This document shows positions 4,596 to 46,675 of a DNA stretch of 64,000 nt, in pieces; positions within the stretch are counted from its first letter, which is position 1, and the number at the start of each line of letters is the position of its first letter. A model generated the notes under the pieces. The model searched no databases, was not told the DNA's origin, and worked only from the letters and a program-made list of their open reading frames with translations. The translations under genes and the position numbers were made by a program. Source of the stretch: an uncultured Coxiellaceae bacterium (GTDB lineage: Bacteria > Myxococcota_A > Polyangia > Polyangiales > Houyiibacteriaceae); contig CAXMND010000044.1 of the NCBI GenBank assembly GCA_964194675.1, positions 5,114 through 69,113 on the forward strand, written 5' to 3'.

Positions 4596-5231
4596 TCAGA
4601 GCGGATTGGTGAGGAGCTGCATCGAGATCTGGAGGGCCAGCGAGTAATCGCCTTCCATCTTGAGCTTCCCGCCGAGGAAAAGCTCTTGGATCGTGAGCTC
4701 GCCACGGCGAACCGCCTCGAGGTCTGAGAACTGGAGCTCCGTGACAAAACCAGGCTCGGCTGGGACCTCAGGAACGTTGAAGGCTACCCGCAGGACCACG
4801 TCCCCCAACTCGGGAACACCCCTGATGGTCGCCTTGAAGGTCATGGGCTGCCCGGCGAGCGCGTCCTCGAACCGCTTGGACGCCGTTTGGGCCGCTCCGA
4901 CCGCCACTTCATCGTCCTCTAGGGCACCGGATTCAAGCGCCTCGCCGAGCAAAAGTTGAACCGCATCGCCAGGAATTTTGGCTGTCGCCCTGAGGGGGAC
5001 GCCTTCGGCTGGCTCGTCTCCCGCCGTCAGGGAGCCCCCGTCGCCCGATAGAACGATTGGCGGGTGGTCGTCGACCTCGAGGCGTACCGCCCCTGTCACT
5101 CCTTTGACGTCGGCAAGGATGCGCTGCGCCCGCTCGTCCCCAGCCGTGGCGCGGGCCTTAAGGACTTCCACTCCGCGGGTGAAGAGCTTTGGGAAGGTGT
5201 CTCGGAGGAACTCGATCGGTTGTATGGTCAT
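4596..5231 (-). CDS. SCP2 sterol-carrier-like domain protein
   Basis: C-terminal ELFLGGKLKMEGDYSLALQISMQLL matches the SCP2 fold signature. Start taken at ATG 5229-5231 (MTIQPIEFL); the ORF track extends to 5300. Confidence 0.7.
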   Translation of the reverse strand: MTIQPIEFLRDTFPKLFTRGVEVLKARATAGDERAQRILADVKGVTGAVRLEVDDHPPIVLSGDGGSLTAGDEPAEGVPLRATAKIPGDAVQLLLGEALESGALEDDEVAVGAAQTASKRFEDALAGQPMTFKATIRGVPELGDVVLRVAFNVPEVPAEPGFVTELQFSDLEAVRRGELTIQELFLGGKLKMEGDYSLALQISMQLLTNPL

Positions 5232-5278
5232 GAGCGGCGGAGTGTAGCCAAGAAGGCCACTCGCACCAAGCTGGCGAA

Positions 5279-7939
5279 ATGGCTCATAATCAGCCACCAT
5301 TCGGAGCCATGTCGGAGGAGGAGCACCGACCTACCGTATTGGTGGTGGGCCAGGGCGAACCGATGCAGACGGCGCTGGGCGAGGCGCTTCGTCGCCACGG
5401 GGCGTCTGTCGCGGCGTGTGCGACCGCGGAGCTCGAGAACGCGGCGCGCGTCTACGCACCAGATCTGGTCGTCCTGATCGGCGACGCCGCGGTGCGGGGC
5501 GGCGCGAATGTCGTGCAACGGATGGCGGCAAACCGAGCAACCGATGTTCTGCCCATCGCCGTCGTCTCGAGCGAAGCCGTCCTCAAGCATGAAGAGCCAG
5601 ACTTTCGCGCCGGCGCAGTAGCAATTGTGCCGCGAGGCGCGGGGGCCGACGCGATCGCTCGTCGACTTGCCGACCTCGCGCGGGAAGTACCCGACCGCAC
5701 CGGCCTCGCAAGGGGCGAGCTCAATGAAGACAACTTGAAGGACATCGTGTCCCTGGTTTCGAGCGACCACAAGACCGGCATCTTGAGCATTCAGTCTCCG
5801 AAGGGCGTTCTCGAAGGCATGCCGATGGTGATCGAGACCGAATCGCCAAGCGCTCACAACATGGAAGTGATCCTCGAGCGTCTGCAGGAGGCGATCGCCG
5901 AGGCCGGGCCTCTCGAGTACGAGTTTCACGAGGCGAGCGGGGGTCGACTGTCGACCTTTCCCGCTCCGATCGAACCTACAGAGCCTGCAGAAGAGATCGA
6001 CCTCCGCGCGCTCGAGGGAACGCGAATAGTGATTCTCGACTCGGACGAGCTTCGTGCGGAGAAGCTCGCTCACGCGCTGCACGCAAGAGGGGTACAGGTC
6101 GCCGCAGCCGATTTTTCGACCGCAGTCATCCCCAGGATTCGAGAGGTCGACCCGCAGGTCGTCGTGATGGACTCAAACGCAGTCGGCGGTAAGGGTATCG
6201 AGTTCGTCCGTGCTATTCGCAGGGATCCGCAGCTTCGCTGGTCTTCGATGCTCGTGGTGCGGTGGGATGATTTCTGGCCGAGCGCCTTCTCGGATGCCGA
6301 ACCGGACCTCGCACAACTGACCGCACGTGTCATGCCCCTCATCGAGCAAGACACGGTGATCACTCGTCGCGTCACCGACGAGATCGATTTCGACACGAGG
6401 CTCGAGCTGATCGGCCCCGGGCGCCTGCTGCGCGCACTCGGTTCGGTTGCCGGTGTGCGTCACGTCGCAATCGCCGGGAACAAGCGAAGCATCCAGGTAG
6501 ACATCGCGGACAACTCGATCGTGGGGGCATACGCGACGCTTCGGGAAGGAACGACCCAGAACTTCCAAGGCATGCCCGCTCTGACAGCGCTCTGGGGTAT
6601 GAACTCGGGCCGTGTTTCGATCCGGGAGCAGGAGCTCCCCTCGGTCGCGAACATCATGATGCCGGTCGACGAAGCGCTCGGGGTTGTGGCGCGCGAGCTC
6701 GGCCTCGCCGAAGGGGAGAACGACGTAGTCGGGGACGAACCGACCGTCCCGCCAGCCGCACCGGCCGTGCGGGATCACGCGACGATGGCTCCGAGTGCCC
6801 TGTCTAGTGAGGAGCTCCAAGAGCTACGGACCATGGCACCCCCCAGGTTCCAGCATCTTCAAGCCGCGGGTGCCGAAGGGCAGGCGCTCTCCGAGGACGA
6901 AGCTCCGACGAACAAGATGCCCCAACCACTCGCGAAGGTAGAGACCGAACGTCGCGCCGCCGCTGTTGCTGGCAGTCTACGAGAGAGCAACGGTCCTGAA
7001 CGACACACCGACCACGGCGCAACGCGTCCCCCGAAGAAGACCCAGATGGGCCTTGCACCGGTATTCGAAACGCTCCCCGATGCGGCCGACAAGAAGACGG
7101 CCTCCCCGAGGCAACCGACCCCGCCATCACCACCGCCCTCCAGCCGAAAGTCCTCGCGAGGTCCGCTGTTTGCGGACGAGGCGTTCGAGCACGAGCTCGC
7201 GCCGATGCTGGAAGGGCCAGCCACGATTCTCGCGCCCGCCGCGACCCCCTCGACACCCGCTTGGATTCAGGTCCTGCTTCTCATGGCGGTCATCGGAGGC
7301 GGCGGTTTCTTGGCCTGGCAGCTCTGGCTCGGCGCCGACTCGGATGCGGTCACGACCGCCGAGGTCGAAAAGGATACGCCTACCGACAAAAGCCCGATCA
7401 CCGGACCCGCAGACGGGCTCGAAGCCGCGGATGAAGGTCTCACGGACGAAGCGCCCCCTCCCAAGAAAGAAGTCGTGGAGGCGAAACCCCAGGAGGCGGA
7501 GCCTGAAGTGAAGCCGCCAGCCCAAGAGAAGCCGAAGCTGGTCATTCCCACGCGAAACCTGCCCCGAGATCCGGGCGAGGCATCCGACGTCCTCGTGCGC
7601 CGTGCCCTTGCCTTGATCCGAGGCGGTGAGCTCAACCGAGCAGAGGCGACGCTCGACCGCGCATGGGAGCTCGACCCGAAGAATCCGCAGGCCATGGCCG
7701 GCTACGCCACCCTCTACATCACTGCCAAGGAGGGCGATCGGGCGGTCAAATGGGCCGAGCGAGCTGTTGAAAAAAGGCCCCGCCGCGCACCGTACAGAGT
7801 GCTCCTCGGAGATGCCCTCATGCTTCGAGGCGAGGCACGCCGGGCACGCAAAGCCTGGCGAAAAGCCCTCGAGCAGGACCCCGACAATCGAGCAGCGCGG
7901 GCGCGCCTCGCCAAGACCACTGGCACGACCGCCAATTAG
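5279..7939 (+). CDS. Large multidomain protein: two degenerate receiver-like domains, DUF4388-like motif, Pro-rich region, one TM helix, C-terminal TPR
   Basis: 886-aa ORF. TVLVVGQGE...DLVVLIGD and RIVILDSDE...VVVMDS are receiver-like. DIVSLVSSDHKTGILSI is DUF4388-like. AWIQVLLLMAVIGGGGFLAWQLWL is the TM helix. C-terminal repeats RAWELDPKNPQA / KALEQDPDNRAA are TPR. Alternative start ATG 5309. Confidence 0.7.
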   Translation: MAHNQPPFGAMSEEEHRPTVLVVGQGEPMQTALGEALRRHGASVAACATAELENAARVYAPDLVVLIGDAAVRGGANVVQRMAANRATDVLPIAVVSSEAVLKHEEPDFRAGAVAIVPRGAGADAIARRLADLAREVPDRTGLARGELNEDNLKDIVSLVSSDHKTGILSIQSPKGVLEGMPMVIETESPSAHNMEVILERLQEAIAEAGPLEYEFHEASGGRLSTFPAPIEPTEPAEEIDLRALEGTRIVILDSDELRAEKLAHALHARGVQVAAADFSTAVIPRIREVDPQVVVMDSNAVGGKGIEFVRAIRRDPQLRWSSMLVVRWDDFWPSAFSDAEPDLAQLTARVMPLIEQDTVITRRVTDEIDFDTRLELIGPGRLLRALGSVAGVRHVAIAGNKRSIQVDIADNSIVGAYATLREGTTQNFQGMPALTALWGMNSGRVSIREQELPSVANIMMPVDEALGVVARELGLAEGENDVVGDEPTVPPAAPAVRDHATMAPSALSSEELQELRTMAPPRFQHLQAAGAEGQALSEDEAPTNKMPQPLAKVETERRAAAVAGSLRESNGPERHTDHGATRPPKKTQMGLAPVFETLPDAADKKTASPRQPTPPSPPPSSRKSSRGPLFADEAFEHELAPMLEGPATILAPAATPSTPAWIQVLLLMAVIGGGGFLAWQLWLGADSDAVTTAEVEKDTPTDKSPITGPADGLEAADEGLTDEAPPPKKEVVEAKPQEAEPEVKPPAQEKPKLVIPTRNLPRDPGEASDVLVRRALALIRGGELNRAEATLDRAWELDPKNPQAMAGYATLYITAKEGDRAVKWAERAVEKRPRRAPYRVLLGDALMLRGEARRARKAWRKALEQDPDNRAARARLAKTTGTTAN

Positions 7940-18839: not shown

Positions 18840-19019
18840 CCGTCCCCGCCATAAGGGCGACATTGTCTACGAGGATTTGACATACGGAGCACTCGGCCCC
18901 TGCGGGGCTTGTGTACCGGGTCTGTATTTTTTTCATAAGGTCTGCATGAAATGCGGGGTTTTGGGGTTCTTGTCGGGGCGGACTTGTTTGATTTCATATG
19001 CTTACGGGGTTTTTCGTTT

Positions 19020-19035
19020 CGGTACGGAGGTTGCA
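19020..19035 (+). promoter_or_regulatory. Sigma54 -24/-12 promoter candidate upstream of the pilin operon
   Basis: cGGtACGgaggTTGCA versus consensus TGGCACG-N4-TTGCW: 10 of 12 specified positions, with the invariant GG (19021-22) and GC (19033-34) at correct spacing. Confidence 0.35.
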
Positions 19036-19047
19036 CGTAAGAAGTAC

Positions 19048-19689
19048 GTGCTTGGGGAAGCTAGACATAGACTAGTTGGATTTACACTTGTGGAGCTGAT
19101 GGTCGTGCTGGCAGTGATGGGCGTGCTCGTCAGCGCTGCTTTGCCGAGCATTAGCGAAGGGTTCGCCGACCGGCGGGTGGCCATGGTCTCCCGCGAGGTC
19201 GTCGGCCTCTTTCAGCGCGCGCGATACATGTCGAGCGCATACGGACGCGCCCACCAGGTCGTCTACGACAACGACGCCGGCACCGGGCTCAGCGAACCCT
19301 TCGCCTTCGAGACGCTCCGGGGCACGGCCGGTGGGTGCTCGGTGAGCAGCTTCGAGAACGCCTCCAACATGAAGCTCTCCGACCTCGACTGCGACAACAC
19401 GAACCATTGGCGTTGCGTCGATCATCTCTATGCAAGCACGCACGACCCGGACCCGTCAGACAACGATCTCATTCGCGTAGACGGCTGGGGGGACACCACG
19501 TTTTGCTACGAGGCAGGATCCAACAACCAGGTGTTCATCGATACGGTGCTCTACACGAACTGGGATGCACCGAGGTCGCAAGCCGGTTTCGGCTTCGTCG
19601 TTTACCGCGACCTCGGTGGAAGGCCGATCGGTGTGGCGCGAAAGGTCTTGGTCCCGTCCGGCACGGGGTCGCCGAGGATCCTGCGATGA
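19048..19689 (+). CDS. GspH/FimT-like type IV minor pilin
   Basis: Prepilin motif G/FTLVELMVVLAVMGVLVSAALP (Gly-1, Phe+1, Glu+5), followed by RRVAMVSREVVGLFQRARYMS typical of GspH/FimT. Start uncertain: GTG 19048 gives a 9-aa leader, and the ORF track extends to 18877. Confidence 0.75.
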   Translation: MLGEARHRLVGFTLVELMVVLAVMGVLVSAALPSISEGFADRRVAMVSREVVGLFQRARYMSSAYGRAHQVVYDNDAGTGLSEPFAFETLRGTAGGCSVSSFENASNMKLSDLDCDNTNHWRCVDHLYASTHDPDPSDNDLIRVDGWGDTTFCYEAGSNNQVFIDTVLYTNWDAPRSQAGFGFVVYRDLGGRPIGVARKVLVPSGTGSPRILR

Positions 19690-37917: not shown

Positions 37918-39735
37918 TCAGCCCTCGGCCGCCCCACCGGGCTCAGGTGCATCGGGCTCCCGTTCGAGGTACCGGAAGACGGTGCGAGGGTCCACCCCGA
38001 GATCCCGAGCTGTCCGGGTCCTATTGCCGTCGTTCCGCTCGAGGCTCTCGAGGATGTATTGCCGGGTGAAGTCCTCGCGAGCCTGGGCCAACGGAACGAT
38101 CGCTCGCTGCTGGTCGCCTCCTAGATCGAGGTCGTCGACGCCAATGAGCGTCTTGTCGGCCAGGACGATCGATTTCTTGATCCGGTTCTCGAGCTCCCGG
38201 ACGTTCCCCGGCCAATCGTAGCCACGCATCGCCTCGAGCGCCCTCGGGGTGAAGCCCTTGACCGTAGCGCCGAACTCGGCCGCGTACTTCTTGAGGAGGA
38301 ACTTTGCGAGGATCACGATGTCGTGACCTCGTTCGCGAAGTGGGGGCAAGTGGACGTTGACCACATTCAATCGGTAGTAGAGGTCCTCGCGGAACGTGCC
38401 TTCCTTGATGCTAGCCTCGAGGTCGCGATTGGTCGCGGTAACGACGCGGATGTCGACCGATTGAGGCTTCGTGTCGCCGACCTTGACCACCTCGCGCTCC
38501 TGAAGCGCGCGGAGCAGCTTCACTTGAAGCGCGGGCGGCATTTCGCCGATCTCGTCGAGAAACAAAGTGCCGCCGTCCGCTGCTTGGAAGCTACCTTGTC
38601 GCGTCGCCACGGCTCCGGTGAACGCGCCGCGAACGTGACCGAAAAGCTCCGATTCCATCAGGTTCTCAGGAATGGCGCCACAGTTGACGACGATGAATGG
38701 CTTCTCCGAGCGATTCGAACGGCGGTGAAGCTCGCGTGCGATGAGCTCCTTCCCGGTGCCAGTTTCGCCAGTGATCAGCACGCTGATGTCCGCGACGGCC
38801 ACCTTTTCGACACGCCGAAAAACCTCGAGAAGGCTCGGGCAACTGCCGATGATGTCACCGAAGCGCTGCGAATCGAGCTCCTCAGCCATCCGATCGCGAT
38901 CGGTGGTTAGTTGGTCGAGTAGGATCGCGTTCTGCAGGATTAGGGAGGCTTGCCCCGCGAAGACCGTCAAGATGTCGAGGCTCGACTGCTCGAACAGGTT
39001 CACCACGTTGTCGTTCCCGACGTAGATCAAGCCAAGAAGCTGGCCCTGCGCAATCAGAGGCGCGACCATCACCGAGCTCAACTGGAGGTTCAACACGCTT
39101 TCGCTCGAGTGGAACATGGTATCGTTGACCGCATCACTCACGATCAACGGCTGCCTAGTATCGATGCAGCGCCGTAGGATGCTGTCTGAGAGCTGGGTAA
39201 CCGCGTCTGGAATCGTCTCCTGATCGACGTTGCGCGCCGCAGCTATGGCAGGGTCACCATCTCGAAGAAGAATGATAAAGCCCTTGTTGGCGTGAACGAC
39301 CTCGATTACCGCATCGAGCAGCGCCTCGATCTGGTCAGGGACTGCCCGTATTTCGAGAAGCCGGCGATTGAAGTCGCTCAGCTTCATCATACCGGCGAGC
39401 TCCGAACTCTCTGAACCCTCGTTGCCCTGCTCGCGTGAAGACCCTTCGTCGTAGAGCGAGAAAACGAGCTCGACGTCACCTAATGTGAGCTTGTCATTGT
39501 GGAAGACCTTGGACTTCTTCTTCTTTTTCCCATTGACCAGAATGACGCTGTCGGGATCGACCGCGTTGAGTGAAAAGTCACGGCCATCGAAGACGATCTG
39601 TGCGTGGTGATCCTGGAGCGAGTTCGCATCGACGGAGATGTCGTTGGCGCCAGCTCGACCGATCGACGTCACACGCTTGTAGATCGCAAACACGCGGGGT
39701 CGTCCCTGAGGAACGATCCACTTGAGGCTCGGCAT
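37918..39735 (-). CDS. Sigma54-dependent transcriptional activator, FHA-GAF-AAA+-HTH architecture
   Basis: N-terminal FHA (TSIGRAGANDISVDANSLQDHHAQIVF), central GAF, AAA+ with GETGTGKE, ESELFGHVRGAFTGA (GAFTGA), and a C-terminal Fis-type HTH (NRTRTARDLGVDPRTV). Confidence 0.88.
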   Translation of the reverse strand: MPSLKWIVPQGRPRVFAIYKRVTSIGRAGANDISVDANSLQDHHAQIVFDGRDFSLNAVDPDSVILVNGKKKKKSKVFHNDKLTLGDVELVFSLYDEGSSREQGNEGSESSELAGMMKLSDFNRRLLEIRAVPDQIEALLDAVIEVVHANKGFIILLRDGDPAIAAARNVDQETIPDAVTQLSDSILRRCIDTRQPLIVSDAVNDTMFHSSESVLNLQLSSVMVAPLIAQGQLLGLIYVGNDNVVNLFEQSSLDILTVFAGQASLILQNAILLDQLTTDRDRMAEELDSQRFGDIIGSCPSLLEVFRRVEKVAVADISVLITGETGTGKELIARELHRRSNRSEKPFIVVNCGAIPENLMESELFGHVRGAFTGAVATRQGSFQAADGGTLFLDEIGEMPPALQVKLLRALQEREVVKVGDTKPQSVDIRVVTATNRDLEASIKEGTFREDLYYRLNVVNVHLPPLRERGHDIVILAKFLLKKYAAEFGATVKGFTPRALEAMRGYDWPGNVRELENRIKKSIVLADKTLIGVDDLDLGGDQQRAIVPLAQAREDFTRQYILESLERNDGNRTRTARDLGVDPRTVFRYLEREPDAPEPGGAAEG

Positions 39736-39744
39736 AGAGCCAGC

Positions 39745-39773
39745 ATTCTAACAGACAGCGCCCGAAGCGTCAG
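39745..39773 (-). promoter_or_regulatory. Sigma70-like promoter candidate for the FHA-GAF activator, implying a near-leaderless mRNA
   Basis: Minus strand CTGACG (39773-39768), 17 nt, TAGAAT (39750-39745). Only 9 nt lie between the -10 hexamer and ATG 39735. Confidence 0.3.
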
Positions 39774-39921
39774 TGCCAGCGCCAGTGTTGAGGAGATCTT
39801 AACTGGACCGGGGTCTTGGGGCGCGCCGTCTCTTCATCGCGGTGCCTTTCGGGACCGTCCCCCGAAGGCCCCTGGTCGTGAGGGCGGACGTTCCCAGGTG
39901 TCGCCGTGCCTCTCTAACCCA

Positions 39922-40050
39922 TCCTGAAGGGGGTCAGGTGCGTCGATCGGCGAGCGCCCCCGCAGGGACGGAGTGAGGAATACGAATGTATTTCGCAGCG
40001 GAGTCGCGAGGAGGAAAGCCGCCGAACGGCGTGCCTGACCCCCTTCAGGA
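39922..40050. other. Long imperfect inverted repeat / candidate structured RNA or MITE-like element overlapping the nrdJ stop
   Basis: 17-bp perfect arms TCCTGAAGGGGGTCAGG (39922-39938) and CCTGACCCCCTTCAGGA (40034-40050). The stem continues for 7 bp (3 G-T pairs) and, after an A-A mismatch, for 6 more bp (TCGGCG/CGCCGA). Inner hairpin GGAATAC-GAAT-GTATTTC at 39977-39994. Confidence 0.35.
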
Positions 40051-43000
40051 ACAGCCCATGGAGTTGCCACAATTTAAACACTTGTAGCAGGCCCCGTTTC
40101 GCACCGTGATGTGCCCGCATTTGTCGCACATGGGGGCGTCGCCCATCATCTCTCCGAGTTGTTGGTCGAGCGCATTGGGTTGGGGGGCGACTGCGCCGTC
40201 GAAGCCGAAAGTGACTTGCTCAGCAGGCTCGATCGCCGGCGGAGGCTCGCGTCGTGTGGAGCCCTCGAGGCGATGCACGGCGGCAACGTCGGTAGGGTTC
40301 CGGAGTTCTTCTTGCTCTTCCTTCGGGGGCACCTGAGCAAAATCATACTGTTTCAGGTACTCGACCCCGAGCACGCGGAAGACGTAGTCGATGATCGACG
40401 TCGAGAACTTGATGTTCGGATGACCCTCGACGATCCCCTGTGGCTCGAACCGAGTGAACGTGAACTGCCTGACGTACGCGTCGAGCGGAACGCCATGCTG
40501 TAGACCCATCGAAACACTGATGGCGAAACAGTTCATCAGGGAACGGAATGCCGCGCCCTCCTTGTGCATGTCGACGAAAATCTCACCAAGAGAGCCGTCT
40601 TCGTATTCACCCGTCCGCAAGAACACCTTGTGACCACCGATCCGTGCTTCCTGCGTGAAGCCAACACGCTTTTGCGGAAGCCGGTGTCGCCGCGTCGGCG
40701 GAGGCGTGAGCCACTCACGCACAGGGGCTTCGAGAGCCCGAGCCGTATTTTGCGATTCTTGCGATTCTTCTTGGCCGTTGGAGTCGTCGGCGGTGTTAAG
40801 CGGCTGCGACGACTTCGACCCGTCACGGTAGAGCGCGATAGACTTGAGCCCGAGCTTCCAACCCTCCTTGTAGATCTGCTCCACGTCTTCGACGGTCGAC
40901 TCTGCCGGAAGGTTGACCGTCTTCGAGATCGCGCCGGAAAGGAACGGCTGAGCGGCCGCCATCGTGTGGATATGAGCCATCGGTGCCAGGAATCGCTCGC
41001 CGATCTTGCCGCATCGGTTGGCGCAATCGAACACCGGCAAGTGCTCGGCTCGCAGATGCGGAGCGCCCTCCACGGTCATCCGGCCGATGACCACGTCGTT
41101 GATCTCGCCGATCGCTTTGGCGGAAACGCCCCAATGTCGAAGGAGGTGAAAGCCAGGTTTGCTATAGACGTCCGGCGCGATTCCTAGCCGGTCGTAGGCC
41201 TCGGTTCCAATCACCCAAGGCGCCAGCGCCGATCCAACGTCGAACACGCCGCGGAGCGCAGTCTCGACCTTTTCGATCTCACGCTCGGTAAGGCCCTTGT
41301 CGAGGAGCGCTTTGCGACCGAAGTGCGGCGCACCGGTGAACGTGCTGGTGCCGGTCACGTACGATACGATGTCCGCCACTTGCGCGTCGGTGTATCCGAG
41401 TCGGTCGAGCGCTTTCGGAACGCTCTGATTGACGATCTTGAAGTAGCCGCCGCCGGCGAGCTTCTTGAACTTCACGAGCGCGAAGTCCGGCTCGATGCCG
41501 GTCGTGTCGCAGTCCATCAGGAGCCCGATCGTCCCGGTGGGTGCAAGCACAGTCGTCTGCGAGTTCCGGTAGCCATACATTTCGCCGAGCTTGCAAGCGA
41601 GATCCCAATCCTCGTGGGCCGCATGGATTAGCTCGGGCGGGCACGCGGTCGGATCCCCGCCGGCCATTCCCGGTCCGCCCACCTCGTTGATGCGGTAGGC
41701 CGCCTCACGATGCTTTCCCATCACCCGCAACATCGGCTGACGATTGCGCTGGAAGCCCGTGAAAGGCCCCTTCGCCGCGGCGATTTCGGCGGACGTTGCA
41801 TAAGCGTGACCGCAGAGAATCGCCGTGAGCGCCGCACAGATCGTCCGGCCCTCGTCGCTGTCGTACGGGATGCCAAGTTGCATCAAAAGCGTGCCGAGGT
41901 TCGCGTAACCAAGCCCCAGCGGCCTGTAGTTGTGGCTGTTTTTGCCGATGAGTTGTGTCGGATAGCTCGCGTAGTCCACGAGGATGTCCATCGCTATGAT
42001 CAGTACGCGAATTGTCTGGCGATAGTCTTCGACGTCGAATCTGCCTTCCTCATCGAGGAACTTCGAGAGATTGATCGAGGCGAGGTTACACGCTGAATTG
42101 TCGAGGAACATGTACTCCGAGCATGGATTCGATGCGTTGATCCGGTCGGTGTTCGGGCAGGTGTGCCAGTCGTTGATCGTAGTGTCGTACTGAACGCCAG
42201 GATCGGCACAGCCCCATGCGGCCTGAGCGATCTTCCGCCAGAGGTCTCGCGCCCGGTACGTATCGCACACCTCGCCCGAAGTCCTGAAATAGGTCTTCCA
42301 CTCACCGTCCGTCTCGAGAGCTTTCATGAACTCGTCAGTGACCCGAAGCGAGTTGTTCGAATTCTGACCCGAGACGGTGTGGTAGGCCTCGCCGTTGAAG
42401 TCAGACTCGTAGCCAGCTTCGATCAACGCTCGCGCCTTTTTCTCCTCACGTACTTTCCACTCGATGAAGTCGACGATTTCGGGATGGTCCATGTCGAGGC
42501 AGACCATCTTGGCAGCGCGTCGGGTGGTCCCACCGGACTTCGTCGCGCCGGCCGCGCGGTCGAGTACCTCGAGGAAGCTCATCAAGCCGCTCGACGTGCC
42601 GCCGCCCGAGAGTTTCTCCTGCTTGCCGCGAATCTTCGAGAAATTGGTGCCTGTGCCGGAGCCGTACTTGAAGAGGCGCGCTTCGTTCTTGATGAGGTCG
42701 TAGATCCCCATGAGGTCGTCGTTGACTGCCTGGATGAAGCAGGCGGAGCACTGTGGACGCTCATACGCCGTGTCGGTTTGGAAGATGATGTCCTGCTCGG
42801 GATCCCACGCGTAGTTTCCGCCCGAACCTTCGATGCCATAGCGCTGATAAAGGCCGCAGTTGAACCAGACGGGAGAATTGAAGGCGGCTTTCTGGTGGAT
42901 CAAGAGGTGCGAAAGCTCGGCTTCGAACGTTTCGGCCGCGTCGGCATCGGCGAAGTAACCGCCAAACCCTTCCCCGGCTTCTCGGATGGAATGGGCGACG

Positions 43001-43329
43001 CGATACACCAACTCGCGAACGCTCTTCTCGCCGCGGTTCTTGTCACCTTGGATCCCAGCCTTCCGAAAATACTTCGAAACGGCGATGTCGGTCGCGAGTT
43101 GACTCCAGCCTTCGGGGACCTCCGCGCCCTTGAGCTCGAAGACGACCGAACCATCCGAATTGGTGATCTGGCTGTCGCGAAGGACGTATTCCACGGTCTC
43201 GAGCGCCTCCTCACCGGTCCCCGTGAGCCGCCGCTCGACGGCTAAGCCGCCTGTCTCTTGCGACACCTCCGCCCTTTGGGCACCTTCGATCTCCAAATTG
43301 CTCGTCATTCCCCTAGTTTCTAGTGCCAC
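40045..43329 (-). CDS. nrdJ: Adenosylcobalamin-dependent ribonucleoside-diphosphate/triphosphate reductase (class II RNR)
   Basis: 1094 aa. Active-site region ASNPCSEYMFLDNSACNLASINL, ten-stranded barrel motifs, C-terminal CDKCGHITVRNGACYKCLNCGNSMGCS zinc-ribbon tail typical of NrdJ. Confidence 0.92.
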   Translation of the reverse strand: MALETRGMTSNLEIEGAQRAEVSQETGGLAVERRLTGTGEEALETVEYVLRDSQITNSDGSVVFELKGAEVPEGWSQLATDIAVSKYFRKAGIQGDKNRGEKSVRELVYRVAHSIREAGEGFGGYFADADAAETFEAELSHLLIHQKAAFNSPVWFNCGLYQRYGIEGSGGNYAWDPEQDIIFQTDTAYERPQCSACFIQAVNDDLMGIYDLIKNEARLFKYGSGTGTNFSKIRGKQEKLSGGGTSSGLMSFLEVLDRAAGATKSGGTTRRAAKMVCLDMDHPEIVDFIEWKVREEKKARALIEAGYESDFNGEAYHTVSGQNSNNSLRVTDEFMKALETDGEWKTYFRTSGEVCDTYRARDLWRKIAQAAWGCADPGVQYDTTINDWHTCPNTDRINASNPCSEYMFLDNSACNLASINLSKFLDEEGRFDVEDYRQTIRVLIIAMDILVDYASYPTQLIGKNSHNYRPLGLGYANLGTLLMQLGIPYDSDEGRTICAALTAILCGHAYATSAEIAAAKGPFTGFQRNRQPMLRVMGKHREAAYRINEVGGPGMAGGDPTACPPELIHAAHEDWDLACKLGEMYGYRNSQTTVLAPTGTIGLLMDCDTTGIEPDFALVKFKKLAGGGYFKIVNQSVPKALDRLGYTDAQVADIVSYVTGTSTFTGAPHFGRKALLDKGLTEREIEKVETALRGVFDVGSALAPWVIGTEAYDRLGIAPDVYSKPGFHLLRHWGVSAKAIGEINDVVIGRMTVEGAPHLRAEHLPVFDCANRCGKIGERFLAPMAHIHTMAAAQPFLSGAISKTVNLPAESTVEDVEQIYKEGWKLGLKSIALYRDGSKSSQPLNTADDSNGQEESQESQNTARALEAPVREWLTPPPTRRHRLPQKRVGFTQEARIGGHKVFLRTGEYEDGSLGEIFVDMHKEGAAFRSLMNCFAISVSMGLQHGVPLDAYVRQFTFTRFEPQGIVEGHPNIKFSTSIIDYVFRVLGVEYLKQYDFAQVPPKEEQEELRNPTDVAAVHRLEGSTRREPPPAIEPAEQVTFGFDGAVAPQPNALDQQLGEMMGDAPMCDKCGHITVRNGACYKCLNCGNSMGCS

Positions 43330-46598: not shown

Positions 46599-46675
46599 GG
46601 CGATGTAGCTCAGGCGGTTAGAGCGGGCGTTTCATACGCGCTAGGTCGGTGGTTCGAGTCCACCCATCGCCACCA
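46599..46675 (+). tRNA. tRNA with anticodon CAT (elongator Met, or Ile2 if lysidine-modified), CCA encoded
   Basis: GGCGATG...CATCGCC acceptor stem (G1-C72, so not an initiator), D-arm GCTCAGGCGGTTAGAGC, anticodon loop TTCATAC, T-arm GGTGGTTCGAGTCCACC, 3' ACCA. Confidence 0.9.

Follow-up and report, generated by a model that had tools for sequence, protein, structure and literature searches.

The nrdJ stop codon of an uncultured bacterium lies at the base of a 129-nt element that is, on good support, one copy of an uncatalogued family of rod-forming elements of ~130 nt. The form of the family is equally well supported: a variable, covarying basal stem of ~30 bp closes an apical half whose sequence is conserved. 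The data also support well, for a clade of marine Myxococcota, a history of vertical inheritance at the nrdJ stop, with two subtypes, tandem and half copies, and purifying selection. Structure, covariation, folding strand, selection, and fidelity to the locus are demonstrated by sequence comparison; from these we infer a plus-strand transcript, its partner, and any effect on nrdJ. Throughout, "the window" means the whole 64-kb stretch of DNA that was analysed, and coordinates are those of the window unless a locus of a relative (L060 to L114) is named.

Every sequence detail that the first-pass annotation had claimed for the element at 39922-40050 was borne out. The closing stem comprises 30 pairs between arms at 39922-39952 and 40020-40050: perfect 17-nt arms (39922-39938 and 40034-40050) continue inward for 7 pairs (39939-39945 with 40027-40033, G.T in 3/7), which brings the run to 24; an A39946 x A40026 mismatch follows, and then 6 further pairs (39947-39952 with 40020-40025). 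The arms enclose 67 nt that contain a 7-bp hairpin and two CGCAG...GAGGA direct motifs, CGCAGGGACGGAGTGAGGA at 39961-39979 and CGCAGCGGAGTCGCGAGGA at 39995-40013. As had been noticed, the non-Watson-Crick pairs of the helices are all G.T on the plus strand; they number five when the 2-bp helix of 39973-39974 with 39998-39999 is included. Both flanking genes, nrdJ and a sigma54 activator, are on the minus strand, and the nrdJ stop indeed falls within the right arm. The parts of the element and its immediate context are as follows.

39922..40050, plus strand: whole element, a 129-nt rod-like hairpin, supported by the fold, covariance model R1, and alignment A1
39922..39945, plus strand: 5' strand of P1, 24 nt; variable in sequence among relatives, with covarying pairs of 3-5 pair types
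40027..40050, plus strand: 3' strand of P1, 24 nt; includes the complement of the nrdJ stop and last codon (40045-40050)
39947..39952, plus strand: 5' strand of P2, TCGGCG; pairs with 40020-40025 (alignment columns 28-33 with 102-107)
40020..40025, plus strand: 3' strand of P2, CGCCGA; partner of 39947-39952
39953..40019, plus strand: conserved core with short helices P3-P6; invariant alignment columns, helices from the alignment and RNAalifold
39977..39994, plus strand: apical 7-bp hairpin, GGAATAC-GAAT-GTATTTC; loop free to vary; its one G.T pair, G39978.T39993, is a plus-strand wobble
40045..40047, minus strand: nrdJ stop TGA, at the stem base and inside the right arm
39908..39921, plus strand: motif GCCTCTCTAACCCA, immediately before the stem when the folding strand is read 5' to 3'
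40045..43308, minus strand: nrdJ, adenosylcobalamin-dependent (class II) ribonucleotide reductase; public call, 1087 aa; open reading frame 40045-43329; Pfam Ribonuc_red_2_N, Ribonuc_red_lgC, and TSCPD
37918..39735, minus strand: sigma54-dependent activator, FHA-GAF-AAA+-HTH; downstream neighbour in the window lineage only
39745..39773, minus strand: sigma70-like promoter of the sigma54-activator gene, CTGACG-17-TAGAAT; context outside the element, kept in L064

The 5' strand of P1 holds a small palindrome of its own (CCTGA-AGGGGG-TCAGG). In the core, purine-rich internal loops (GC/AAA, GCA/GA, GGA/GGA, and GA/GCA) lie between helices P3-P6, and the recurring sequence motifs are GAGCGCCCCCGCAG, CGAGGAGG-AAGCC, and CGCAG, the last occurring twice. 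The P4 register, 38-96 and 39-95 in alignment columns, is paired in 39/39 sequences, with a CG/GC swap between subtypes. The apical loop differs in nearly every relative. Motif GCCTCTCTAACCCA precedes copies in the closest relatives only (L060, L063, and L065), and the gene downstream of nrdJ is dapF or another gene in other lineages.

The structure is real and far from chance. The plus-strand RNA folds at -86.6 kcal/mol, compared with -50.9 +/- 3.8 in shuffles (z = -9.35; 0/200 shuffles as good), and the minus-strand RNA at -76.1 kcal/mol (z = -6.56; no shuffle as good). The 17-mer arm occurs 2 times in the window against 0.15 expected, and the element is the sole long inverted repeat of its kind in these 64 kb. 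A chance palindrome is rejected on the fold z-scores against shuffles and on conservation in relatives.

More than 30 distinct contigs from related marine Myxococcota have the ~130-nt element after their nrdJ stop, frequently in the form of tandem or half copies. A metagenome collection scanned with the core pattern GCTGCGRAATACNNNNGTATTCCTC yielded 41 loci, 0 of them in viral contigs; ~32 lie directly after an nrdJ stop, always in identical orientation. This pattern fixes the apical hairpin as invariant in the loci it finds, and the scan is incomplete: L061 and L062 are not among its matches, and other copies may exist. Further loci were reached via relatives of NrdJ, and in these the apical core is common and the arms differ. 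Subtypes A and B coexist within single contigs, and even there the arms differ (L098, L086, and L107). Tandem copies occur in L065, L082, L084, L086, L097, and L098, and arrays of right halves in L069, L070, L096, L102, and L107. The tie to the gene extends into its coding sequence: changes in the last codon and stop are matched by changes in the far arm (TCCTGA/TCAGGA, AGCTGA/TCAGCT, and TCCTAA/TTAGGA), and in L091, L097, and L098 the tandemly repeated unit includes the final 8-12 nt of nrdJ as well. The element is absent from L110 and L068, L064 retains a left-arm remnant only, Sandaracinus-type loci differ, and several contigs break within the repeat (L066 and L067). A scan of genome contigs with the 17-mer arm gave 57 single matches in unrelated taxa, about the number expected by chance, and no contig with both arms. 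The Planctomycetaceae match in that scan is unrelated; the arm is lineage-specific, so copy number is not informed by it.

Pairing was assessed on alignment A1, which holds 39 sequences in plus-strand orientation and 50 specified pairs. Of its cells, 91.3% are paired, compared with 76.3% in shuffles; 30/50 pairs change on both sides, and 277 cells do so compared with 94 in shuffles. None of 500 shuffles matched any of these observed values, and sliding the 3' partner by 1-3 columns lowered pairing to 34-45%. The rows of A1 are related sequences and cell counts overstate independent events; the numbers of pair types and of wobble positions are sturdier measures. RNAalifold independently gives the same rod fold, with 26/41 pairs compensated. 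The first-pass annotation had named covariation in RNAalifold as a check, and the outcome is heavy covariation with the stem kept in relatives. Compensatory change beyond controls, the defining test of a structured nucleic acid, also reaches the apex: L111 (85% NrdJ identity), which was reached via its protein and not via the pattern, has an element with a compensated apical hairpin, GGAGUAC/GUACUCC, and this compensation in P7 is therefore independent of the search pattern.

Which strand folds is told by the wobble pairs. The first-pass annotation had argued for the plus strand from one sequence, at a chance of 1 in 16, and the argument holds across the family: read on the plus strand, A1 contains 171 G.U cells in 28 pairs; read in the nrdJ sense, it has 16, spread over 10 pairs, and the share of paired cells is 91.3% and 83.3%, respectively. 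Among 31 nrdJ-linked full copies, the G.U count is 138 on the plus strand versus 5 on the other. The plus strand has the lower free energy in 43/46 distinct copies, with a mean gain of 10.6 kcal/mol. Wobbles are themselves conserved (U24.G111 in 31/39 sequences; a tandem 5'-UG/3'-GU in 16-18/39), and the internal loops are all purine-rich on the plus strand. We attribute this asymmetry to selection on the folded plus strand because mutational bias would need a strand difference of more than 10-fold. Folding with a purine/pyrimidine-reduced alphabet, tried for a strand-neutral register, proved too permissive and gave spurious pairs; explicit alignment helices were used instead.

The asymmetry bears directly on the possibility that the element acts in the nrdJ mRNA, where from the stop codon onward it would stabilise the 3' end, be processed, or bring about factor-dependent termination. 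REP/BIME and ERIC elements act as sense 3'-UTR elements. The start of the element always coincides with the nrdJ stop, its orientation is constant, and the sense RNA folds well too (-76.1 kcal/mol, z = -6.6); in several lineages a canonical terminator comes after the element or elements, which would make them co-transcribed with nrdJ. Selection on a sense RNA, however, would tolerate G.U and remove A.C, and the opposite is found (16 vs 171 cells). Some A.C positions are even conserved (for example 24/119, in 28/31 copies), the non-canonical positions are pyrimidine-pyrimidine on the sense strand, and no U tract follows the stem. Taken together, a sense 3'-UTR role seems to us rather unlikely.

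The element also evolves more slowly than the gene it adjoins. Its identity to the window copy is 76-97%, compared with 40-90% at the 4-fold degenerate sites of nrdJ, as three loci illustrate.

L099: element 90.5%, nrdJ 4-fold sites 61.7%, identity to the window
L075: element 85.7%, nrdJ 4-fold sites 47.4%, identity to the window
L111: element 76.3%, nrdJ 4-fold sites 40.1%, identity to the window

Conservation so far above that of neutral nrdJ sites, over long divergence, argues against a selfish palindromic repeat devoid of host function, that is, a MITE or REP remnant kept by tandem duplication and arm-to-arm gene conversion. Conversion plus drift would not be expected to leave a 10-fold strand asymmetry of transition mismatches or conserved wobbles, and within the nrdJ lineage there is a single locus with no target duplication. 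What speaks for such a repeat is the company the element keeps: half copies, rearranged fragments, losses in L110, L068, and L064, contigs that break inside the repeat (L066 and L067), and a MITE relative with terminal inverted repeats and 8-bp target duplications. We consider this explanation very unlikely.

That MITE relative was found in sample Ga0247727, where dispersed copies occur in six contigs. It is 205 bp long, carries the core of the element at its centre (L078 1790-1995, L081, and L106), and is bounded by terminal inverted repeats CTCATGATTGATCACATCT... and 8-bp target duplications. Its outer arms show no strand asymmetry. For the organism's pgi, the nearest sequences are from Polyangiaceae/Myxococcota (57-58% identity). 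In L080, positions 2571-2724 form a second copy that has diverged (37.8 bits). An orientation bias of the MITE copies (at first 5/7 nrdJ-like) was dropped: the copies in L106 and L087 have convergent genes on their two sides, and those in L078 and L103 are located upstream of a gene on the folding strand, so that no bias can be claimed.

The nrdJ lineage presents a different picture. Covariance model R1 gives the window element 142.5 bits on the plus strand and 41.3 on the minus strand. With this model a single copy was detected in the 64-kb window, and a search of 474 kb found no strong copy away from nrdJ in nrdJ-lineage contigs; contigs of 301, 326, and 410 kb contain one exact core each. 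The copy count that had been proposed as a check thus places the element, in the window and in the nrdJ-lineage contigs sampled, at the nrdJ locus only. No target duplication was seen at the window copy, whose flanks are TAACCCA and ACAGCCC. This counts against the suggestion in the first-pass annotation that a MITE-like insertion supplies the nrdJ stop, as do the confinement to one locus in the lineage and the proteins themselves: NrdJ, which terminates in ...CLNCGNSMGCS* in the window, ends ...GCS* at the same position in the element-less L110, L068, and L112. Because NrdJ ends GCS* in all relatives compared, the stop codon is, by this comparison, native and not supplied by an insertion.

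Several features point to dynamics at the level of DNA, and with them to a hairpin of plus-strand single-stranded DNA, which could form when the DNA is replicated, for instance, and on which a DNA enzyme could act in recombination, transposition, or priming. On that account the element would be akin to REP/REPIN-RAYT systems, IS200/IS605 ends, or attC sites, and recombination would have a hot spot in the 3' flank of nrdJ. Strand-specific G.T and sheared G.A pairs also fit folded DNA, a promoter is unnecessary, and two inverted small palindromes with a pairing spacer give a REPIN-like design. The locus is dynamic, with tandem copies, right-half arrays, and presence or absence in close relatives; the copies in L091, L097, and L098 that carry the last 8-12 nt of nrdJ, the variable gene content downstream of nrdJ, and a 7.8-kb insert between partial copies in L063 fit as well. 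Other observations run the opposite way. There is no transposase, integrase, or reverse transcriptase in 20 further open reading frames scanned in the window or in neighbouring genes, about one copy is present per genome region sampled in the nrdJ lineage, and the dispersed copies elsewhere travel as passengers of a TIR/TSD (DDE-type) MITE and not alone. In attC and REPIN conservation runs the other way from the conserved apex and variable base seen here, most copies lack the attC core sites RYYYAAC/GTTRRRY, and the advantage of the plus strand over the minus strand is only 3.6 kcal/mol with DNA parameters, compared with 10.5 kcal/mol with RNA parameters, a difference that speaks for RNA rather than DNA. 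A single-stranded DNA function is in our estimate unlikely.

The L063 locus has further peculiarities. Downstream of its full copy, at ~5130-5460, lie rearranged partial copies together with a duplicated sigma54-activator promoter and first codons. The 7.8-kb block consists of unassigned genes, sits between nrdJ and the activator gene, and is flanked by partial copies. A tRNA-fMet-like 3' half (CTCATAACCCGAAGGTCGTCAGTTCAAATCTGGCG, minus strand) is fused to the inner half of the element; as a tRNA source of the element this piece was rejected, being a 3' half only, and ARAGORN calls no tRNA there. In L072, an inverted fragment at ~4890-4930 that resembles the folding-strand arm of another copy (CTTGAAGGGGCTCGCTCACGCG) follows the full element, and the flank differs even though NrdJ is 97% identical to that of the window.

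Comparison with catalogued elements yielded no known class. The Rfam search that the first-pass annotation had called for was run and no family matches: Rfam 15 gave no match at E <= 10 in window positions 39400-40400, only two tRNAs reach the gathering score in the whole window, and six related loci gave only a chance-level snoRNA match (E = 0.11). No match to the element was found in plasmids or phages, and no description of the nrdJ-stop element was found in the literature searched. An "unusually elaborate terminator" had also been suggested. No U tract follows the stem on either strand (AACAGCCC on the plus strand, TGGGTTAG on the minus strand), no terminator-like sites were found on either strand of 39500-40400, and several relatives have a canonical hairpin with a T-run right after the element. 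By its sequence, the element is not an intrinsic terminator.

REPINs are REP doublets that form hairpins (Bertels and Rainey 2011, PMC3116915), and the resemblance is considerable. Both are hairpins of ~100-130 nt built from two inverted short palindromes and a pairing spacer; both are extragenic, located by gene ends, with compensatory changes, single-half remnants, and ordered clusters of tandem units; and for both a fold is predicted in single-stranded DNA or mRNA (PMC3116915). The inverted short palindrome in each arm, joined into one long hairpin with compensatory changes, is the REPIN feature found here. REPINs, however, number in the hundreds per genome and come with a cognate RAYT, whereas the nrdJ element has one locus per region sampled, and no RAYT (Y1 transposase) gene was seen among the 20 further window open reading frames scanned or the neighbouring genes. 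In REPINs the basal REP is conserved and the spacer variable, whereas here the base is variable and the apex conserved. Unlike REPINs, the nrdJ element is kept at an orthologous site across species under purifying selection. A classical REP/REPIN was rejected, as neither high copy number nor arms conserved within a genome were found in the window and contigs sampled.

The likeness to attC sites lies in imperfect palindromes of 57-141 nt at a gene 3' end, often overlapping the stop, with structure kept more than sequence and one specific DNA strand that folds. As an integron attC, the element was rejected: RYYYAAC...GTTRRRY core sites are absent in most copies, the base is mostly CTGAC...GTCAG, and TAAC...GTTA appears at the base only where the nrdJ stop is TAA, which makes the resemblance accidental in those lineages. 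It differs from attC sites, too, in having no cassette arrays and no integrase, in a conserved part that is the apex and not the base, and in its association with nrdJ, a syntenic housekeeping gene; no cassette array and no tyrosine recombinase were found in its neighbourhood, which is syntenic and of housekeeping character. A retron msr-msd was dismissed, with no reverse transcriptase among the flanking genes (nrdJ, the sigma54 activator, or dapF in other lineages).

ERIC (IRU) and Correia/NEMIS-type MITEs are imperfect palindromes of 100-160 bp that often lie directly past stop codons and are co-transcribed; their long RNA hairpins are cleavable by RNase III or RNase E. The nrdJ element resembles them in having a relative that is a true MITE with terminal inverted repeats and target duplications. 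Those families are dispersed and polymorphic in insertion site, whereas the nrdJ element occupies one locus with no target duplication, and, unlike in ERIC and Correia elements, its conserved wobbles favour the strand opposite the host gene.

The reading we prefer, if tentatively, is a structured plus-strand RNA that acts at the 3' end of nrdJ. The functional form would be a folded single strand with the plus-strand sequence, complementary to the nrdJ mRNA, and the RNA would be transcribed towards the nrdJ 3' end. Its long duplex, with conserved G.U and G.A pairs, could be a module recognised by a protein or by RNase III. It might affect the 3' end of the nrdJ message in cis, or keep out antisense transcription that arrives from the variable downstream DNA; a cis action is conceivable because the 3' arm overlaps the last codon and stop of nrdJ. 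The likeness to cis-antisense and 3'-overlapping sRNAs consists in a folded strand complementary to the last codons and the stop; the differences are that no promoter or terminator was found, that the upstream flank is unconserved, and that tandem arrays and a MITE occurrence exist.

Transcription around the element sits uneasily with an antisense RNA. No plus-strand sigma70-like promoter was found near the element in the window; among relatives, a single weak promoter-like site, built from hexamer repeats, is present on the folding strand of L075. The idea of an independent sRNA gene, which the first-pass annotation had entertained, is weakened because the plus-strand upstream flank is unconserved, even where NrdJ is 93-97% identical between relatives. 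Directly next to the element, several lineages have a hairpin with A and T runs on its sides (AAAAGGGGACAGTCCCCTTTTT); a promoter would hardly fit there, and antisense transcription coming in should be halted. In L069, L075, L079, L082, L101, L104, and L109, AAAAGGGGACAGTCCCCTTTTTGAAAGGGTTAAT directly adjoins the element or a half copy that trails it; its position would mean that transcription of nrdJ extends across the element in the sense direction and that antisense transcription is kept from entering. In relatives with a canonical terminator after the element, the terminator implies sense co-transcription with nrdJ. Against the antisense RNA it also counts that nrdJ is the only constant neighbour and that its transcript carries the weaker-folding complement, and that dynamics at the DNA level are suggested by arrays of half copies, by tandem duplication, and by the MITE relative. 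The puzzle is plain: the comparative data indicate that the opposite strand folds, and gene order indicates that the nrdJ strand is the one certainly transcribed.

The AAAAGGGGACAGTCCCCTTTTTGAAAGGGTTAAT module, an A/T-run-flanked hairpin with a GGGTTAAT tail, is itself nearly identical in L075 (~1940-1975), L069, L077, L079, L082, L101, L104, and L109. It is kept where the arms of the element have diverged, an unusually strong conservation for a terminator.

A broader idea, possible but doubtful, is that a MITE core was captured, came to regulate or guard the 3' end of nrdJ, and has been kept for a long time opposite the stop, either as an antisense RNA or as a template-strand DNA hairpin. If true, such control by a captured core would be of a kind not described for any ribonucleotide reductase gene. 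The family joins a fixed, selected chromosomal element to a mobile MITE with the same core, and host capture of a mobile-element module, or the reverse, is possible. If functional, the element would add to the non-coding motifs of bacteria a new one for which the comparative support is unusually clear and which is linked to an essential enzyme of DNA-precursor synthesis. A solution of the strand puzzle would reveal either an unrecognised antisense layer at ribonucleotide reductase genes or a function for chromosomal single-stranded DNA hairpins.

Other features of the neighbourhood deserve mention. Sandaracinus-type nrdJ genes (76% identity) are represented by L112, L113, and L114, three shown of 23 contigs read with such an NrdJ. 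These three contigs end 100-175 nt past the nrdJ stop, model R1 is unmatched there, and the pattern suggests that another repeat breaks Sandaracinus-type assemblies at the same position. A short palindrome, CAGCT-GAGCGAG-AGCTG, spans the nrdJ stop at these loci.

A 107-aa open reading frame on the plus strand (39604-39927), antisense to the start of the sigma54 activator, ends at a TGA in the left arm that mirrors the nrdJ stop; it is probably spurious because the flank is not conserved. Descent of the element from a tRNA was also considered and rejected: the window has a tRNA-Met (CAT) at 46599-46675 on the plus strand, opposite in strand to nrdJ, and it is unrelated in sequence to the element. 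L064, L065, L066, and L068 likewise have a tRNA-Met at the corresponding place, ~3.2 kb upstream of the nrdJ start. GC skew gave a flat profile, from which no replication direction could be read. Elsewhere in the window, a 16-nt inverted repeat (19154-19169 / 19289-19304, 94% complementary, 119 nt between arms) lies in the open reading frame 18877-19689, which has no Pfam match and is situated just upstream of pilin-like genes. Finally, hexamer repeats (GTCAGT/GCCAGC/GCCAGT) form 3 units at 39769-39787, just upstream of the promoter of the next gene; similar repeats occur downstream of the element in L069, L074, L075, L076, L092, L099, L100, L101, and L109, where arrays reach up to ~20 units (CAGTGC/CGGTGC) and the number of units differs between close relatives.
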